From: Anaerolineae bacterium
GTDB taxonomy: Bacteria; Chloroflexota; Anaerolineae; S140-20
Length of the DNA stretch: 15,564 bases
NCBI GenBank assembly: GCA_027021705.1
Contig: JALUTT010000031.1
Span: 1-15,564, forward strand
Reading direction: 5' to 3'
Shown: positions 6,442 to 15,564 of the stretch, piece after piece
Layout of the letters: each line of letters opens with the position of its first letter
Position numbering within the stretch: the first letter of the stretch is position 1
The notes under the pieces: model-generated
Told to the model about the DNA's origin: nothing
What the model saw: the letters and a program-made list of their open reading frames with translations, nothing else
Database searches by the model: none
Translations under genes and position numbers: made by a program

Positions 6442-9099
6442 TCACGCACGCTGCTCCGACGAGTCGTCCTTCTCCTTCTCTGCCTTCTCGGCCAGGACTG
6501 CCCTCAGCTCTTCCGACAGAGGGGTATCCCCGATGGCCGACCGGCCGGTGATCCGCTCGTACCAGAGGGGATGGTGCAGCCGGGCCCAGCCCTTGGTCAC
6601 CCAGCCGGCGAAGATCGCCTGCAGGGTGCCCGGGTTCGCCCCCGTGCTCAGGTAGATGTGGGAAAGCACGCCCGAGATGCCGAAGAAGGCCGCCAGATCG
6701 TGGACGACGATGGCGACGAAGACCAGGTCGTTGGGCAGGGACTTCCTGAAGAAGAGGATGATCCCGGTGACCAGGAGGGTGAGGCCGCCGATGACGACGG
6801 TCCAGAAGTAGACCTTCTGTCCCGCATTGAAGCGGTCGGCCGGCACCGGTTCGTGCCCGCCCAGGTAGCCGCCCAGCTTGCGCAGCCACTCTCGGTCGCT
6901 GGGGACCAGCACCGCGTCGCGCCACCAGAGGACGAACATCAGGAGCACGCCTGCGCCGAAGACGAAGCCCAGCCAGCCGTGCCAGACGCGGGGGGTGACG
7001 GTGCTGTTGAAGATCAACTGCAACCACCGCCCGCCGTTAAAGGCGAAGGCCAAGCCCGTGAGCGCCAGGAAGAGGAAAGTTATCAGGACCACCAGGTGGA
7101 CTAAGCGCTCGAACCAGTTGAACCGCTCGATCCGCTCGTAGTCATCCCCTCGGGGGTCCATAGGCCGGCCGCCGAAGTCGTGGGGTCCGTAGCGGGTGAA
7201 GTGGAGCGTGGTGGCGAAGAAGACGAGCATAATCAGCCCGCCGATCCAGGGGCGCACCAACGGACAGTGGACGGCGCAGAGGGTGTAGCTGAAGTCGCTC
7301 ACCCCGATGGTCCAGCGCACCGGCTCGACGACCGGATTGCCCGTCTCGTCGAAGGGGTCCACGATGTGGGTCCGCTGGAAGAACTCCCCCTGGAAACCGT
7401 GGCAGTCCACGCACCCACCGGCCCCCAGCGCCTCCTCGGCCGGCGCGACGTTGTGGCTGATGGAGAAGGCTTCGCTGACACACTCCGGCGCAGGATGGCC
7501 GGTCAGGGTGCCGTCGGGACCGAACTCCCACAGCTTGTCCCCCTTGACGAAGACGGGATGCACCTGGGTGAAGCGGGCGTTGCCGGCCAGCGTCTGCTCC
7601 AGGGCCTGCAGCCCGGCTGTGATCTCCTCGGGCCGGTTCACCTCGGGGAAGCCATCCCCGTTGTCATCGGTGACCTGGTCCTTGTACTGCTCCCAGGCTG
7701 CCGCCAGCTCCCGCGCGAAGAGGGGGTAGACGACTCCATCGGCATCCCGGTTCCCCCACCAGATGCCGAAGATGGGGTTGACGGGGTGGATCTGGCCATC
7801 GAAGAACTCGTAGGCCGGATACCAATCGGCCGGCTGTCCCCACTTCTCCGCCTCGCCGATGATGTCCCAGTGGAGGCTGCCGTAGGTGGAATCAAAGTAC
7901 TCCCCCGCCGCCCGGTGCTTCTGGGGGATGTGGCAGGTCTCGCAGGCGATGGTCTCCAGATGCGAGGGTGGGATGTTCAAGTGCTGCGGGATGGAAGCCC
8001 CCAGATAGCCGGTGGTGTGGCAATCCTCGCAGGTGCGCATCGTGTTGTCCAGGTCGTCGCGCACCGTCTCGATGGTGGTATGCCCCTTGGCGAAGTTGTG
8101 GGCCAGGTCGCCCGGGTGACAGTCCACACAGTGGATGCCTTGCTGGTTGTGGACATCGGGGTTGATGGGATCGTCCCAACTGAAGCCCCGCTTCTTCATA
8201 TCGGCCGGCCCATGGCACTGCATACAGTTGGCGTCCGCAGGGCGGTAGTTGATGGACAGCACGACTTTGCCGTCCTCGTTGAAGAGACGCCGATTGTAAA
8301 CCACCGTAGGGGTCTCCCCGGTGAGCTGTTTGGTCTCAGGGTTAAAGATGCGCCCCTTGACCACGCCCAGCCGGCCGGCCGCCGTCGCAGCCCACTTCAG
8401 GTTCCAGCTCTTGAGCTGACCGATCCGTCCCTTCCAGTCGTACTCGGGCGAATGGCAGATCAGGCAGTCGGCCTCCAGCACGCCGCTCTTGTCCCAGTGG
8501 CTGCCGATGTAGTCCCCGTCCAAGGAGTCCCGCAGCGCCGGATTGGCGGCCAGCGTCACGTCATAACGCTTGCCCTCGCGGTCGTGCTCCAAGGGACCGC
8601 CACCCGGGTGGCAGCCGGCGCAGGGAGGCAAGTTGGGCGGTGCTGTGGTCACCCACTGCCAGACGGTGATGTCTATCTCGTCGGGGCTCTCGTTGTGCTT
8701 TTTCGCCAACTGGCGAAAGGAGGGCGGTCAGTACTTCCCGAACATGCCGTCGGAGAGTACCCACGGCCGTTCGGGGTCAAAGTGATCGTTGATGACATCC
8801 GCGCCCTGCTGGAAGTGGTATCCCAGCGTAATGGTGGCGTAGTCGTGGCATCCCTCGGCCCCGCAGGTTTGGCGGGGGCTGTAGGGCTGATCCGCGTTCT
8901 CGCCGGTTAGCGGATTGATCACCTCACCGGTCTCGGTGCGCAGGAAGAAGGGGGGATGCTGCTTGGGGACGACCTGGGCCGGAGGGGCTTCTACCGGTCC
9001 GGCCAACACTCCCGTGCTCCAGAGGAGTCCGGCAGCCAGCACCAGGGCCATCGCTGCTAGGACTCCCCCTATCCCTCTGAGGAGATCGTGGACTCTCAT
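6442..9099 (-). CDS. Putative selenoprotein: OTR-like octaheme cytochrome c fused to an FdnI/formate dehydrogenase gamma-type cytochrome b (~885 aa, in-frame TGA at 8728-8730)
   Basis: ORFs 8728-9099 and 6442-8709 share a frame and are joined by TGA-CCG-CCC-TCC-TTT-CGC-CAG-TTG. There is a strong RBS (AAGGAGG) and a signal peptide at 9099. Heme motifs are one CX4CH plus seven CXXCH. The C-terminus has FdnI motifs (ERFNWFERLVH, VWHGWLG, RFNAGQKVYFW, HIYL, WARLHHPLWY). Confidence 0.8.
8701..8718 (-). promoter_or_regulatory. Candidate bacterial SECIS hairpin
   Basis: mRNA reads UGA-CCGCCCUCC-UUUCGCC-AGUU-GGCGAAA: a perfect 7-bp stem with a G-containing apical loop 16 nt after the UGA. Confidence 0.65.
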
Positions 9100-10695: not shown

Positions 10696-10880
10696 GGTCT
10701 TCACCGGGCAAGGGATCGTGAAAAAGTTCGATCCTCGTAACGGTTCACCCTCCCGCAGGTTAGGCGCGTTTCCGACGCGAAACCGTGCTTCAAATAGCCC
10801 ATCGGAGCTGAAAGCACCCTCGACCGGTGACCTGTGGGAGAGTAGGTTGATAGATACCCCGGAAAAATGACGTTCATCCC

Positions 10881-10910
10881 TTGACAGCGAGGTGGGTCGT
10901 GACGTATAAT
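10881..10910 (+). promoter_or_regulatory. Consensus sigma70 promoter for the GntR-carbamoyltransferase-carbamate kinase operon
   Basis: TTGACA (10881-10886), 18-nt spacer, TATAAT (10905-10910). Confidence 0.85.
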
Positions 10911-10915
10911 GGACC

Positions 10916-10931
10916 TGTCTGACATCCGACA
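10916..10931. promoter_or_regulatory. Candidate GntR operator over the transcription start
   Basis: TGTCTGACATCCGACA contains an inverted repeat (TGTC..GACA) and a direct repeat (TCTGACA/TCCGACA), directly downstream of the -10 element. Confidence 0.55.
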
Positions 10932-10947
10932 AGTTGGGAGCGCCAGC

Positions 10948-11688
10948 GTGAAACCGATAGCCTCTTTGAGGCGGGACCCCCGTCCGCTCTACCTTCGGAT
11001 TGAAGAAGCCCTGAACGACCTCCTGGCTCAGATGGAGGCCGGCGAACAACTCCCCTCTGAGCCCAAGCTGGCCCGCCAACTGGGTGTCTCCCGTTCCACA
11101 TTGCGGGAGGCCCTGCGCTCGTTTGAAGAACGCGGGCTGGTGATCCGCAAGCAGGGCATCGGCACCTTTGTCAACACCCCGCGTCCCCTCATCCCCAGTG
11201 GCCTGGAGACGCTGGAGAGCGTGGATGTGCTGGCCCGCCGTATGGGACTGCAATGCGAGACGGAGGACCTGGTCATCGAACGGGTTCCCGCCAGCACCGA
11301 GGCGGCCCGGGCGCTGGGCTTGTCTCCCGGCAGCAGCCTGATCCAGGTCGCCCGCCTCAAGACGACGGACGGGGTGCCGGTGGCCTACATAGTGGACAAC
11401 GTGCCGACGACGCTGGTTAGCCTGGAGGCCCTGCAGGCCGACTTCGAGGGCTCGGTGCTGGACTACTTGCGCACCCACGCCACACCGCCTCCTGCCTACG
11501 CCCGGGCCAACATCATCCCCACGCGGGCCGGCCCCCTGAGCACCGTCCTGCGGGTGCGCCCTGATGCCGTCCTCCTGCTCCTGGAAGAGGTGCTTTACGG
11601 CCAGGACCACACCCCGATGGACTATTCCCGGAACTACTTCGTCCCTTCCTACTTCCGCTTCCACGTAGTGCGGCGGGTCGTGGCCTGA
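10948..11688 (+). CDS. GntR-family (HutC subfamily, UTRA domain) transcriptional regulator
   Basis: PLYLRI, LPSEPKLARQLGVSRSTLREAL and GIGTFV winged-HTH motifs, plus a UTRA-type C-terminus. GTG 10948 with a GGGAG RBS is preferred because ATG 10909 overlaps the -10 box. Confidence 0.92.
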   Translation: MKPIASLRRDPRPLYLRIEEALNDLLAQMEAGEQLPSEPKLARQLGVSRSTLREALRSFEERGLVIRKQGIGTFVNTPRPLIPSGLETLESVDVLARRMGLQCETEDLVIERVPASTEAARALGLSPGSSLIQVARLKTTDGVPVAYIVDNVPTTLVSLEALQADFEGSVLDYLRTHATPPPAYARANIIPTRAGPLSTVLRVRPDAVLLLLEEVLYGQDHTPMDYSRNYFVPSYFRFHVVRRVVA

Positions 11689-11748
11689 TCCAGACCGGGC
11701 TCGACACCGCCCAGCCTACACCAAAAACCGTTGAGAGGAGTGAGAACA

Positions 11749-12792
11749 ATGCGCACGGACACCTTCCGAGGAAAGGACTTTATCACCCTGCTGGACTGGA
11801 CCAAAGAGGAGATCGAGACCATCCTGGACGTAGCCCTGGACTTGAAGCGACGCCGGGCGATGGGCGAGCTTCACGATCACCTCTTGCGCGGCAAGACCCT
11901 CTTTATGATCTTCTACAACCAGTCGCTGCGCACCCGCAACTCCTTCGAGGCCGGCATGCACCAGTTGGGTGGTCACGCCCACTTCTTGGACCCGAGCAAG
12001 ATCTACACGCCGGCCCTCCCCGGCAAGGAGATCGCCTACACCACCGAGCGCGTCTCTGACGTGGCCCGCGTCCTCTCCCGCATGGGGGAGGCCATCGCCA
12101 TCCGCTGCTACGGCGACCCGGTGGACTGGGTCTACGGCGGGGCCAACGAGATCATCCGCAACTTCGCCTACTGGGCCGACATCCCCGTCCTCAACATGGA
12201 GGACGACAAGTACCACCCCTTCCAGGCCCTGGCCGACATCCTCACCGTCTACGAGAAGTTCGGCACCTTCAAGGGGGTGCGCTTCGTGATGAGCTGGGCC
12301 TACTCCCCCAGCGTCCACAAGCCCCGCGCCGTGCCCCAGAGCGCCATCATCGCCGCCACGATGATGGGGATGGACGTCACGCTGGCCCACCCCAAGGGGA
12401 TGGAACTGGACGACGAGGTGTTGGCCGCCTGCCGCAAGTACGCCGAGCAGACCGGCGGCTCCTTTGACATCAGCTACTCCTTCGAGGAGGCGATCAAGGG
12501 GGCCCACGTCGTCTACCCCAAAGCCTGGACGGCGGTGCCGATGTTCAAGCCCCCCGTCGGCGAGGACAGCCCGGAGAAGGCTCAGGAGATCTTCGACGCC
12601 AACAAGGACTGGATTATGGACGCCGATCGGATGGCCCTGGCCGACCCCAACGCCATCTACATGCACTGCCTGCCGGCCGACCGAGGCTTCGAGGTCACCG
12701 ACGACGTCATTGACGGCCCCCAGTCGGTCGTCTTCGACGAGGCGGAGAACCGGCTGCACGTGCAGAAGGCAGTGATGAGCCTGGTGATGTGA
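11749..12792 (+). CDS. Carbamoyltransferase 1 (YgeW/AOTCase-like knotted type, substrate uncertain)
   Basis: SLRTR, HPFQALAD, SWAYSPSVHKP loop, YPKAW, MHCLPADRG and EAENRLH motifs; the OTCase DxxxSMG motif is absent. GAGGAG RBS precedes ATG 11749. Confidence 0.88.
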   Translation: MRTDTFRGKDFITLLDWTKEEIETILDVALDLKRRRAMGELHDHLLRGKTLFMIFYNQSLRTRNSFEAGMHQLGGHAHFLDPSKIYTPALPGKEIAYTTERVSDVARVLSRMGEAIAIRCYGDPVDWVYGGANEIIRNFAYWADIPVLNMEDDKYHPFQALADILTVYEKFGTFKGVRFVMSWAYSPSVHKPRAVPQSAIIAATMMGMDVTLAHPKGMELDDEVLAACRKYAEQTGGSFDISYSFEEAIKGAHVVYPKAWTAVPMFKPPVGEDSPEKAQEIFDANKDWIMDADRMALADPNAIYMHCLPADRGFEVTDDVIDGPQSVVFDEAENRLHVQKAVMSLVM

Positions 12793-12810
12793 GTACCAAA
12801 GGAGCCCGCT

Positions 12811-13848
12811 ATGGACCTCTACGGACGCGATCTCATCTGCACCCAGGATTGGTCCTTCGAGGAGCTGATGGCCGCCCTCGACCTGGCGGCCAAGATGAAG
12901 CGGGATCGCTTTAACCCCCGCTGGACCCGCATTCTGGAGCACCGGACCTTCATTATGTTCTTCTACAACCCCTCGGTGCGGACCCGCCTCTCCTTCGAGG
13001 CGGCGATGACCGAGCTGGGGGGGCACGCCCAGTTCATGACGCCCTCGGCCGGCCGCTTCAAGACCCAGAAGCAGGCCGGCGAGACCATCGAGGATGCGGC
13101 CAAGGTGATGGCCCGCTACGCCGCCGGCATCGGCATCCGCATCCTGGAGGACAAGGTGCCCTACTACGGCGCCGGCGACGAGATGCTGCGGGAGTACGCC
13201 TACTGGGCCGACGTTCCCATCTTCAATATGGCCGACGACAAGTTCCACCCTATGCAAGGGCTGGCCGACGTGATGGGCTGGGCCGAGTGGTACGGTGAGG
13301 GGCCGGGCCGGCCCGACTACAGCGCCTTGGAGGGCAAGAAGTTTGTCCTCACCTGGGCCTCGGGAGCCCTCGCCCGCTCCTGGTGCTCCGTCCAGGAGGC
13401 CCTGCTCGTTGCCTCCCGCTTTGGCATGCACGTCACCCTAGCCTACCCCGAGGGCTACGACCTGGACCCTGAGGTGATCGCCCAAGTTCGGCAGAACTGT
13501 CAGGAGCGGGGCACCGACTTCGAGGTCGTCCACGATCCCGAAGCCGGCTACGAGGGGGCCCACATCGTCTACGCCCGCAACTGGATGAGCCCCAACGCCT
13601 ATCGGGATGGCGTCTTCCACAAGCAGGAGGAGATCGAGAAGGCGCTCCAGTACCCGGAGTGGATCCTCACCGCCGAGAAGATGGCCCGCACCGACAACGC
13701 CATCTTCACCCATCCGATGCCGGTGGATCGGGGACACGAGGTGACCGACGAGGTGGCCAGCGGGCCTCGCTCCGCCATCTACGACATCGCCGAGAATCGG
13801 CTCCACGTCCAGAAAGCGGTCATGGCCCTCACGATGGGGAACCTGTAG
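12811..13848 (+). CDS. Carbamoyltransferase 2 (divergent paralogue, substrate uncertain)
   Basis: SVRTR, HPMQGLAD, YARNW, THPMPVDRG (in place of HCLP) and AENRLH motifs; it has its own AAGGAG RBS. Confidence 0.88.
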   Translation: MDLYGRDLICTQDWSFEELMAALDLAAKMKRDRFNPRWTRILEHRTFIMFFYNPSVRTRLSFEAAMTELGGHAQFMTPSAGRFKTQKQAGETIEDAAKVMARYAAGIGIRILEDKVPYYGAGDEMLREYAYWADVPIFNMADDKFHPMQGLADVMGWAEWYGEGPGRPDYSALEGKKFVLTWASGALARSWCSVQEALLVASRFGMHVTLAYPEGYDLDPEVIAQVRQNCQERGTDFEVVHDPEAGYEGAHIVYARNWMSPNAYRDGVFHKQEEIEKALQYPEWILTAEKMARTDNAIFTHPMPVDRGHEVTDEVASGPRSAIYDIAENRLHVQKAVMALTMGNL

Positions 13849-13873
13849 CACGGGGCGAGGAGGAGGAACGGGA

Positions 13874-14818
13874 ATGAGTCGAGGCGTTGCTATCGTCGCC
13901 GTCGGTGGGAACTCGCTGATCAGGGACAAAGCCCATCAGACCGTACCGGACCAGTACGAGGCGGTGAAGGAGACGGTGAAGCACATCGCCGGGATGATCC
14001 AGCAGGGCTGGGACGTGATCATCACCCACGGCAACGGCCCCCAGGTGGGCTTCATCCTGCGCCGCTCCGAGTTGGCAGCCCACGAACTGCACACGGTGCC
14101 CCTGGACTCCTGCGGGGCCGACACCCAGGGGGCCATCGGCTACATGTTCCAGAAGGCCCTCTACAACGAGTTCAAGCGGCGGGGGATGAAGAAGCAGGCC
14201 GCCACCGTCGTCACTCAGGTCTTGGTGGATCGGGATGACCCCGCCTTCCAGAACCCGACCAAGCCCATCGGCTCCTTTATGGACGAGCGGACGGCCAAGG
14301 AGCGGGCGGCCCAGGAGGGATGGGTGGTCAAGGAAGACGCCGGCCGGGGATGGCGGCGCGTCGTGCCCTCCCCCATCCCCCGACGGGTGATCGAGCAGGA
14401 GGCGATCAAGACGCTGATCAAGGCCGGCTTCACCGTCATCGCCGTAGGTGGAGGCGGCATCCCCGTCGTCGAGGACGAAGAGGGCAACCTGGTGGGCGTC
14501 GAGGCGGTCATTGACAAGGACTACGCCAGCAGCCTCCTGGCCCGCAGCATCGGTGTGGACCTCTTCCTCATCTCCACAGCGGTGGAGAAGGTGGCCATCA
14601 ACTTCGGGAAGCCCGACCAGCAGTGGCTGGACCGGATGACGTTGGAGGAGGCCAAGCGGTACTACGCCGAGGGCCACTTCGCCCCCGGCAGCATGGGGCC
14701 GAAGATCAAGGCGATCATTGACTACTTGGAGGCCGGTGGCAAGCGGGCCATCATCACCAATCCGGAGAACATCGAGCGGGCCCTGGCCGGCGAGACGGGA
14801 ACCCTGATCACCCCGTAG
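13874..14818 (+). CDS. arcC: Carbamate kinase
   Basis: VGGNSL, THGNGPQVG, PTKPIG, GWRRVVPSP, GGGGIPV, EAVIDKD and GSMGPK motifs. Confidence 0.96.
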   Translation: MSRGVAIVAVGGNSLIRDKAHQTVPDQYEAVKETVKHIAGMIQQGWDVIITHGNGPQVGFILRRSELAAHELHTVPLDSCGADTQGAIGYMFQKALYNEFKRRGMKKQAATVVTQVLVDRDDPAFQNPTKPIGSFMDERTAKERAAQEGWVVKEDAGRGWRRVVPSPIPRRVIEQEAIKTLIKAGFTVIAVGGGGIPVVEDEEGNLVGVEAVIDKDYASSLLARSIGVDLFLISTAVEKVAINFGKPDQQWLDRMTLEEAKRYYAEGHFAPGSMGPKIKAIIDYLEAGGKRAIITNPENIERALAGETGTLITP

Positions 14819-15096
14819 CAGTCCGCAGTCCGCAGTCCACAGTCCACAGTCCTCAGTCCGTGGTCGGCGGTCAGCAGTCGGCGGTCTCACTTGGTCGCTT
14901 GCTCCTTGCCGCTTGGCCCTTGCCCCTTGCCGCTTGATCGGCGGTCGGCCTTCGGCGGTCCCGCTTGGTCGGGTAGTCACTTGGTCGCTTGGTCAAGTGG
15001 TCGGGTGGTCGGGTGGTCGCTTGGTCCTTACCGCTTGCCCCCTGCCGCTTGCCCCTTGCCACTTGCTCCTTGCCGCTTGGCCCCTGCCCCTTGCGC
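14817..15096 (+). repeat. Mosaic tandem array of degenerate 7-mers and 8-mers (~38 units)
   Basis: 10x nnYRGTC 7-mers (14817-14886), one 8-mer, 6x CTTGnnn, 3x GGCnnTC, 8x nnnTRGTC 8-mers (14963-15026), and 10x CYTGCCn-like 7-mers (15027-15096). Confidence 0.92.
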
Positions 15097-15119
15097 CGGG
15101 GGCGGGATGATGCTACAAT
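15091..15119 (+). promoter_or_regulatory. sigma70-type promoter for the Rpn-like gene
   Basis: TTGCGC (15091-15096), 17-nt spacer, TG-C-TACAAT extended -10 (15111-15119). Confidence 0.65.
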
Positions 15120-15170
15120 CCCCGGCACTGCCGATTCCAGGAGCGACACACCGACGAGAGGAGGAATGCC

Positions 15171-15564
15171 GTGGGCCGGGCGGACATCGGGAGCAAGTAC
15201 GTGCTGGCCGGCGAGCCGACGGAGTGGGCCCGCTGGCTGCTGGGAGACCAGACCATTTGGGTCGAGGAGCGGCTTTCGGGAGAGTTCCAGTTCCTGATGC
15301 GCCACAGCGATGAGGTGCTGCGGGCACGGGGGCGGGAAGGCCCCTTCGTCCTGGTGGTCGAGGTCCAACTGCGGGCGGACAAGCGGATGCCCCGGCGGAT
15401 GCAAGCCTACGCGGTGCTGGCCGAGGAGCGATACGATCTGCCGGCCTACCCGCTGGTGCTCTACCTGCTGCCGCCGGGGGAGGGGGTGCAACTGCCGGAG
15501 CGGTACCATCAGGAGTTTATGGGCTTGACGGCCCGTCGGGACTTCCAGGTGGTGCGGGTGTGGG
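15171..15564 (+). CDS. Rpn-family recombination-promoting nuclease/putative transposase (PD-(D/E)XK-like), truncated by the window end
   Basis: Manual translation from GTG 15171 after a GAGGAGG RBS gives MGRADIGSKYVLAGEPTEWARWL...SGEFQFLMRHSDEVL...VVEVQLRADKRMPRRMQAYAVLAEERYDLPAYPLVLYL...EFMGLTARRDFQVVRVW. The frame is open to the window end and is absent from the ORF track. Confidence 0.8.
   Translation, partial: MGRADIGSKYVLAGEPTEWARWLLGDQTIWVEERLSGEFQFLMRHSDEVLRARGREGPFVLVVEVQLRADKRMPRRMQAYAVLAEERYDLPAYPLVLYLLPPGEGVQLPERYHQEFMGLTARRDFQVVRVW

Follow-up and report, generated by a model that had tools for sequence, protein, structure and literature searches.

The window analysed here is the whole of contig JALUTT010000031.1 (C31; 15,564 nucleotides, forward strand) from the Anaerolineae bacterium assembly GCA_027021705.1. 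On its minus strand, at 9099..6442, lies a gene of 885 codons plus stop whose predicted product (hereafter the octaheme protein) joins an octaheme cytochrome c to an FdnI-type cytochrome b in one chain, and whose single internal TGA, codon 124 (8730-8728), almost certainly encodes selenocysteine (Sec). According to a structural model, the heme domain has a fold like that of octaheme tetrathionate reductase (OTR) and stands outside the curated family, thus forming an uncurated sister family. Our leading, still tentative, proposal is that the octaheme protein is a self-contained quinone-linked enzyme that would make or break sulfur–sulfur bonds (polysulfide, sulfane sulfur, or thiosulfate/tetrathionate) at heme 2, outside the membrane.

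Under genetic code table 11 the gene falls apart into open reading frames (ORFs) of 123 and 755 amino acids. If TGA124 is read as Sec, the full gene (6442..9099, minus strand; stop codon 6444-6442) yields 885 amino acids, and the G + C content at third codon positions stays at 0.73–0.97 along its whole length. The translation contains every motif quoted in an earlier note on this DNA (DVHNQQGIHCVDCH, ACETCHIP, HNVAPAEEALGAGGCVDCH, WIGGLIMLVFFATTLHF, and GK-Y-U). The order described there, of eight heme motifs, a linker transmembrane helix and a four-helix cytochrome b, was confirmed by the translation, the model and the alignment to FdnI; an N-terminal hydrophobic helix precedes these elements.

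Predicted Selenocysteine at Codon 124

The in-frame TGA (8728..8730, minus strand) was compared across 83 loci, comprising the window's own, two from genomes and the best 80 of at least 509 metagenome matches. In column 124 of this alignment, 29 loci have TGA, 32 Cys, and nine Tyr; 12 have some other residue, and one has a gap. The codon is no assembly error, since contigs of three sequencing runs (X2, X3, and X4) cover the region 8600-8900 with 0 differences from the window; the X2 and X3 contigs differ from it at 17–21 other sites across 3 kb.

A hairpin resembling a selenocysteine insertion sequence (SECIS) lies at 8701..8718 (minus strand). It has a 7-bp stem and an AGUU loop that starts 16 nt past the UGA, and it overlaps the codons of F-R-Q-L-A-K. 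After removal of duplicates, its 12-nt core follows the TGA in identical form in 27 of 27 distinct Sec loci, whose G + C content ranges from 0.37 to 0.71, and it occurs in two of 30 non-Sec loci encoding RQLA; those two have GGA and TGT, one base off TGA. On its own the hairpin folds modestly (z −1.2 to −1.8). Fisher's test for the association of Sec with the SECIS-like element gives p 3e-14, which is too strong a figure because the loci share kinship; among independent pairs, two to three of four are concordant and none discordant (median p 0.25), which with only four pairs is not significant. The genome encodes selA, selB, and selD, all above cut-off, and tRNA-Sec. The earlier suggestion of Sec at this codon is therefore supported by the alignment with Cys, the invariant hairpin and the Sec genes of the host.

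The Sec state changes at least seven times on a FastTree tree. The hairpin is intact in four loci with GGA or TGT at codon 124 (L043, L066, L071, and L083), and Arg occupies this position in the closest sister proteins (P0004-P0006); both may possibly be recent losses of Sec.

Relation of the Heme Domain to Octaheme Tetrathionate Reductase

An AlphaFold2 model built from 111 sequences (mean predicted local distance difference test score, pLDDT, 89.8; predicted template modeling score 0.83) was searched with Foldseek and returned two matches under E 0.001, FdnI and the OTR of Shewanella (1sp3). VIA-align of the whole model against 1sp3 superposed residues 45-611 on chain positions 1-437 (Z 14.3, rmsd 4.2, 334 of 436 aligned). 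With the heme domain alone, 1sp3 was the sole chain with Z of at least 5 among 48,161 (Z 12.1, rmsd 4.3, 284 aligned). Profile–profile comparison (hhalign) with 22 OTR-type sequences aligned heme 1 through heme 8 (P 99.9, E 7.9e-33), so that both the predicted model and the profiles place the eight hemes in OTR order. A sequence search of the PDB with the protein or its profile did not find 1SP3, and the link to OTR therefore rests on structure and profile–profile comparison.

The score against the curated OTR model TIGR04315 is 39.9 bits with a cut-off of 375; 13 relatives reach 28.6–57 bits, and a control OTR in locus L114 scores 551.6 bits. TIGR04314 (MmcA) gives 42.3 bits with a cut-off of 250, and no NCBIfam model (June 2026) covers the heme domain. 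Because the fold matches and the score falls far under the TIGR04315 cut-off, we regard the family as a sister of curated OTR. Of the earlier assignment to the OTR superfamily, the likeness of the predicted fold has stood, the superposition on Shewanella OTR proposed as a check having turned out OTR-like, whereas membership in the curated family has not.

With OTR of Shewanella oneidensis (SO4144, PDB 1SP3) the octaheme protein shares the predicted fold from end to end, the order of the eight motifs, the number of distal ligands (seven) and a DxxK after heme 4; moreover, OTR genes often precede a separate cytochrome b gene (L108, L111, and L113). It differs in its low identity (about 20%), in having Sec, Cys or Tyr in a longer loop, in its fused FdnI-type cytochrome b and in a His/Cys switch at position 48, and it is without GKxxxINNFC, the INNFC motif of OTR not being found as sequence in the octaheme protein. 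MmcA of Methanosarcina (TIGR04314) is likewise an OTR-related multiheme cytochrome, and the match to it is weak. The host genome contains a second octaheme protein of the OTR superfamily, P0122 (L090:794-2335; G000:C37:17793-19334), with E 5.5e-31 to 1SP3 and 162 bits on TIGR04315; it has no equivalents of Lys56 and Cys64, and its gene cluster also encodes two nonaheme proteins and a cytochrome b.

Heme Ligands and the Surroundings of Heme 2

The eight heme motifs stand at residues 79, 160, 212, 292, 324, 357, 386, and 563 (all feature coordinates below are on the minus strand). Motif 1 (8845..8865) is CGAEGCH, a non-canonical CxxxxCH whose C79, C84, and H85 are conserved in 63 of 63 rows; most homologues have CxxCH at this place. 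Motifs 3 (8452-8466), 5 (8116-8130), 6 (8017-8031), 7 (7930-7944), and 8 (7399-7413), assigned from sequence, lie with the distal His317, His334, His373, His380, and His549 in 7399..8466, and His95 is situated upstream. These six His are invariant in all of the 158 aligned rows that have the residue. A seventh likely distal ligand, that of a wire heme, is His48 (8956..8958), which is kept in heme-2-less relatives and switches between His and Cys across the family (74 and 68, respectively, of 142 rows with the residue). This suggests that the wire heme is His/Cys-ligated in about half of the family. In Tyr124 members position 48, where occupied, is always His (48 of 48). A covariation of Cys48 with Sec or Cys at position 124 (58 of 68 Cys48 rows in the raw count) was rejected, as independent pairs gave a median p of 1.

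Judged by conservation rather than geometry, seven distal ligands (the six invariant His and His/Cys48) are thus available for eight hemes, which sets heme 2 apart. Its motif (CAGCH-PGGG, 8608..8622) aligns to heme 2 of OTR, has no spare distal His and is predicted to bind the catalytic heme. OTR has the same count of seven plus one, with a Lys-ligated, catalytic heme 2 (PMC11024163), and the ligand is named as Lys56 (PMC3769277; here and below, cited papers are drawn upon for their accessible portions). The candidate counterpart in the octaheme protein is Lys134 (8698..8700), which is Lys in 154 of 156 rows, is placed by hhalign onto the G-K of OTR and disappears together with heme 2. The earlier note had looked for the heme ligand in the Lys of GK-Y-U; this residue, K122, is Lys in 46 of 144 rows with the residue and, compared with K134, is ruled out by such poor conservation. 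The segment of motif 4 and D300-x-x-K303 (8191..8226) is collinear with D150-x-x-K153 of OTR; K303 is Lys in 155 of 158 rows and D300 is Asp in 118 of 158. In OTR, Cys64, D150, and K153 presumably have roles in the pocket of the active site.

Relatives that Lack Heme 2

A natural control is provided by relatives encoded beside canonical OTR. A search for the latter in 401 genomes of the phylum gave 18 proteins above cut-off, 17 of them in one family. In 13 of 13 fully fetched loci, the next gene encodes a relative of 900-970 amino acids with seven hemes and a cytochrome b, which matches the octaheme family at P 100 and E 2.5e-54 (hhalign). All 13 are without the heme-2 motif, K134, K303, and Sec124 (Asp or Asn instead) and keep His48, 95, 317, 334, 380, and 549. 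Three more loci from three further families have the same gene order and have likewise lost the heme-2 motif. In all, four families of the window's class contribute 16 loci, and in every one of the 16 the seven-heme relative directly follows canonical OTR and is without heme-2 motif and Sec; the losses of Lys134 and Lys303 are tabulated for 13 of them.

Since these relatives lost heme 2, the Lys residues and Sec together, their retention in the stand-alone form argues for catalysis, and the comparison of sequences suggests that the heme-2 residues are kept for chemistry. MmcA is described as a conduit that has lost heme 2 and the Lys (PMC11024163); the octaheme protein keeps both, and the seven-heme relatives share the loss of MmcA. 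Among 147 newly listed distant representatives, 97 have the N-terminus, and K134 is present in 27 of the 31 with a heme-2 motif and in five of the 66 without. This joint loss is a pattern and not a statistic, because the heme-2-less forms may stem from few events. In a second large clade (P0207 and about 60 other representatives, mostly of 600-800 amino acids), RFGRHxPGGG stands where the heme-2 motif would be, and K134 and K303 are both missing.

In L114, the two genes after the seven-heme relative encode sulfur transporters of the YeeE/YedE type, of which one includes a rhodanese domain, and YeeE/YedE-like ORFs follow in the other OTR-paired loci too. The conserved operon (L114:775-6920 on G006:C179; also L115-L126 and L131-L133) consists of OTR, the seven-heme cytochrome with cytochrome b, YeeE/YedE, and YeeE-rhodanese; it appears to be a thiosulfate/tetrathionate module of two cytochromes, hitherto undescribed. 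In L132, an ORF resembling sulfide:quinone reductase was recognised nearby by eye.

Cytochrome b Domain

Residues 656-850 (6550..7134) form the predicted di-heme cytochrome b of the FdnI type. They score 157.9 bits on TIGR01583 (cut-off 115.85) and align to FdnI of E. coli (1kqf_C) with E 7.7e-27, His668, His707, His800, and His814 falling on FdnI His18, His57, His155, and His169, and the N758-A-G-Q-K motif on N110-K114. VIA-align against 1kqf_C (1KQF chain C) gave Z 20.8 (rmsd 2.5, 200 aligned). The classification as FdnI-type made in the earlier note is well founded on this score, the four conserved His with NAGQK, and the structural match. The domain differs from FdnI in being fused as a C-terminal domain with no fdnG or fdnH alongside. 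No formate dehydrogenase-N complex is encoded with it: contig C31 carries neither of these genes and none of the genome's eight molybdopterin-family matches; fdnG of this genome has its own fdnH and fdnI on C56. The quinone site of FdnI lies on the cytoplasmic side.

Genomic Context

The stand-alone position noted earlier also holds among homologues. A search with the eight molybdoenzyme domains of the genome found a molybdoenzyme in the flanks of one of 83 loci (L053, about 6 kb away), and the homologues consequently do not always cluster with molybdoenzymes; flanks of at least 2 kb on both sides were available in 27 of the 83. Fused Sec and Tyr members mostly lie among unrelated genes. A DsrE-like gene adjoins six of 28 Sec loci and 0 non-Sec loci, and TusA is present in L053. 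For cytochrome c assembly the genome contains two Ccm-type matches. It also encodes menA and eight molybdopterin enzymes, and no fewer than 18 of its ORFs carry at least four heme motifs. A second Sec-containing molybdopterin enzyme is encoded on C5 with no obvious FdnI gene nearby. In addition, a YeeE/YedE-family match with one in-frame TGA adjoins a molybdoenzyme gene (G000:C2:38863-39330) and is probably of the known Sec-containing YeeE type.

Proposed Function and Its Alternatives

In the reaction that we propose, the heme domain would be exported and loaded with heme by the Ccm system. The reaction with menaquinol or menaquinone would take place at the conserved NAGQK and His814, on the cytoplasmic face, where FdnI has its quinone site. 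Between there and heme 2, electrons would travel in one direction or the other along the two b hemes and the seven c hemes that are bis-ligated. Heme 2, without a distal His, would be lined by Lys134, Lys303, Asp300, and Sec124, and the selenolate of Sec124 may attack the S–S bond as U325 does in MccSep. Electron transfer from or to an FdnI-type site would be electrogenic, which would fit a low-potential sulfur couple, and the enzyme could work in either direction, as a gradient-driven reductase or an energy-conserving oxidase.

Sulfur–sulfur chemistry is favored for four reasons: Sec and heme perform it in MccSep, the OTR-paired relatives sit with YeeE/YedE and rhodanese, DsrE and TusA occur beside Sec members, and an FdnI-type quinone site on the cytoplasmic side suits a low-potential couple. 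MccSep/ExtKL of Geobacter sulfurreducens (GSU2937-2936) reduces polysulfide and selenite with Sec and heme (PMC13510729). It is likewise a multiheme c-type selenoprotein that annotators split at UGA; it, too, has a SECIS-like hairpin, and variants with Cys occur in nature. Unlike the octaheme protein with its eight motifs, it is described as a soluble pentaheme tetramer in which a heme has Cys as ligand. As NF040886 (MccSep/ExtKL) had no match at E ≤ 1e-2, the likeness is one of analogy, not homology; no MccSep structure was among the fold matches, an absence that does not amount to exclusion.

A number of observations weigh against this reading. The OTR-paired form may have arisen only once. 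The loop 118-134 does fall on the Lys56–Cys64 segment of OTR, so the region singled out in the earlier note was aptly chosen, but two registers disagree on the OTR counterpart of Sec: the profile register puts K134 on Lys56 and V150 on Cys64 and leaves Sec in an insertion ten residues earlier, whereas the structural register, from a fragment cut at G118, sets that residue on OTR G55 and brings Sec near OTR 61-64, a fragment end being the least reliable part (pLDDT 75). Of the 158 rows, 49 have Tyr at position 124, six Ile, and three Arg; in the clade that is the closest sister to the octaheme protein, this place is taken by Arg, Ala, or Cys. Sec or Cys is therefore not needed family-wide, and of the earlier idea of a catalytic Sec it is the location of the loop that survives, with other residues replacing Sec in much of the family. 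The stand-alone context is drawn from mostly short flanks, and the window's own neighbors are uninformative on sulfur. All six DsrE-adjacent Sec loci belong to one clade, and no match to this DsrE subfamily was found in the window's genome; in the same genome menB and mqnA stay below their cut-offs. A deep, mostly Cys clade, whose members share about 40% identity with the octaheme protein, is found in arsenic-resistance-like islands, and its cytochrome b is often degenerate or absent, with heme ligands lost. Finally, OTR reduces nitrite and hydroxylamine too (PMC11024163).

Among the other explanations, a CbcL-like conduit, acting as quinol oxidase or quinone reductase for partners encoded elsewhere and using Sec, Cys, or Tyr as sixth ligand or redox tuner of heme 2, holds up best, although we consider it unlikely. 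Each of these three residues can ligate iron. The genome is rich in possible partners, namely the multiheme ORFs and molybdopterin enzymes counted above, among them the Sec-containing enzyme on C5. CbcL of Geobacter (GSU0274) and its kin MtrH and MtoC are also single chains with an N-terminal multiheme cytochrome c and a C-terminal HydC/FdnI-like di-heme cytochrome b, in the same domain order (PMC9129911, PMC6295460). The search for this architecture suggested in the earlier note accordingly yielded fused homologues, but of a plan with known precedents. As described, CbcL is a conduit whose nine hemes are all bis-His, with ten distal His available (PMC9129911), compared with at most seven for eight hemes in the octaheme protein; the OTR-type domain, the His-less heme 2 and Sec set the latter apart. 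The near-invariance of K134 and K303 also speaks against a mere conduit, as does the loss of heme 2 and Lys in the likely conduit forms of the OTR fold (MmcA and the OTR-paired relatives), and fdnG of the genome is already served by its partners on C56.

Quite improbable in our estimate is a quinol-fed reductase of nitrite, hydroxylamine, or NO, a one-chain analogue of NrfHA with an open site on Lys-ligated heme 2. The activities of OTR and the retention of OTR-like K134, D300, and K303 would agree with it, and it offers the best fit for the Tyr variants, Tyr in the distal pocket being typical of NrfA. On the other hand, such a reaction does not need selenium, no recurring nitrogen-cycle genes were found among the neighbor clusters, and a cytoplasmic-side quinone site combined with a high-potential acceptor would be expected to cost proton-motive force. 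MccSep, in the accessible portion of its description, is without nitrite activity (PMC13510729).

A reductase of metalloid oxyanions (selenite, tellurite, or arsenic species), serving detoxification or selenium supply, appears more improbable still. The case for it comes from the islands of the deep Cys clade (for example L046, L050, L060, L061, L075, L077, L081, and L082), with genes for Acr3-type proteins (10 loci), ArsR (10), an ArsP permease, methyltransferase, thioredoxin, DsbD-like, DGC, DUF169, and TauE proteins, and porins. Furthermore, an ExtI porin adjoins L078, a LysR regulator like the selenium-associated family (235 vs. 250 bits) adjoins L001, and the selenite activity of MccSep (PMC13510729) points the same way. 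These islands, however, are the context of that distant clade with its often degenerate cytochrome b, and the window clade has none of it. Lastly, that TGA124 is a true stop, leaving two ORFs or a pseudogene as in the databases, is very improbable: although 40 of 120 listed homologues (of 818) start at position 131, right past the TGA, RefSeq has short forms of 707-712 amino acids in three cultured Fundidesulfovibrio species, and both the hairpin fold and the pair test are modest, the downstream part has no signal peptide, read-through homologues are continuous, and the common TGA/Cys column, the hairpin core invariant over a wide G + C range and the complete Sec machinery all oppose it.

Other Features of the Window

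The octaheme protein begins with a predicted signal peptide or N-terminal anchor (residues 1-33, 9001..9099, minus strand; hydrophobic stretch 3-36, model helix 3-28), whose cleavage site is inferred. The linker transmembrane helix, recognized in the sequence at about residues 613-633 (7201..7263, minus strand), corresponds to model helix 602-637. The gene sits between fabF, on the same strand, and the convergent rlmB. Besides these two, the window encodes glycoside-hydrolase-like and PIN-domain-like proteins, a GntR regulator, two carbamoyltransferases, a carbamate kinase and a cysS-like gene assigned by reading its sequence only. The GntR regulator, the two tandem ornithine-carbamoyltransferase-like paralogues and carbamate kinase (10909-14818) make up a putative catabolic operon; both paralogues are below the ornithine carbamoyltransferase cut-offs, and the first passes that of the N-acetylornithine type (300 vs. 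288 bits). Positions 1-650 are a coding-looking multi-copy element with 93–96% identical copies on C160, C123, C175, and C29, a short repeat near 10700 (10700-10800) has about 190 matches in the genome, and the stretch 14820-15564 holds low-complexity repeats and, after them, a multi-copy ORF without annotation (15171-15563). A promoter and terminator scan of the window found nothing above chance. The read sets that cover the region best are hydrothermal vent metagenomes, and those listed include no RNA dataset.

Distribution and Significance

The family comprises 818 matches at 90% clustering, or 660 clusters at 50% identity and E ≤ 1e-30 with the seven-heme relatives included; the start positions mentioned above were examined for the 120 listed. 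Source names include Chloroflexota, Deltaproteobacteria/Thermodesulfobacteriota, Gemmatimonadota, Zixibacteria, and Methylomirabilota, and the closest named loci, at 85% and 76% identity, are from metagenome-assembled genomes of Chloroflexota. Within the phylum the family was found in two of 401 genomes (E ≤ 1e-20) and in five of 41 relatives (E ≤ 1e-8), always as the distant seven-heme form except in the window's genome; it was not found in the three same-family genomes searched (64–91% complete). Some longer members (P0149, P0153, P0154, P0164, P0175, and P0185; 1070-1450 amino acids) have inserted domains or up to 16 heme motifs. The database name "formate dehydrogenase subunit gamma" fits only the cytochrome b quarter of the protein. 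The octaheme–cytochrome b fusion is, to go by these sequences, a widespread, mis-annotated and uncurated selenoprotein family, and metabolic reconstructions can go astray because its members are often cut at the UGA and named as a formate dehydrogenase gamma subunit.

Each element of the octaheme protein has a precedent: OTR with a neighboring cytochrome b, c-plus-b fusions, a multiheme selenoenzyme and one Sec-containing TIGR04315 protein. The last is a GenBank-annotated entry in Table 1 of PMC13188914 and probably a canonical OTR, since none of 14 octaheme-family members comes near the TIGR04315 cut-off (best 57 vs. 375 bits). The table, in its accessible portion, lists no octaheme–cytochrome b fusion. 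A search of the literature on selenocysteine multiheme or octaheme cytochromes and on OTR/MmcA, which one key survey and the supplements of surveys lay outside, found no paper on this family. The present analysis adds the ligand count, K134 in place of K122, the His/Cys48 switch and the heme-2-less OTR-paired control.

MccSep is the only experimentally studied protein found to pair Sec with multiheme chemistry. If our proposal is true, the octaheme protein would add another such case with no structural relation to MccSep; its predicted scaffold is that of OTR, a fold described as having a cryptic role in physiology. The natural Sec, Cys, Tyr, and heme-2-less variants, together with the cultured Fundidesulfovibrio hosts, make both the role of the OTR active site and that of selenium at a heme testable. 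One may go further and suppose that the iron of heme 2 has Sec124 itself as its sixth ligand, swapped for Cys or Tyr to retune the site, and that the chain is a complete respiratory loop of catalytic heme, eight-heme wire, and quinone site. We regard this extension as unlikely, but if it were true, it would mean molybdenum-free sulfur respiration or sulfide oxidation for many uncultured anaerobes, hidden behind the name of a formate dehydrogenase gamma subunit.

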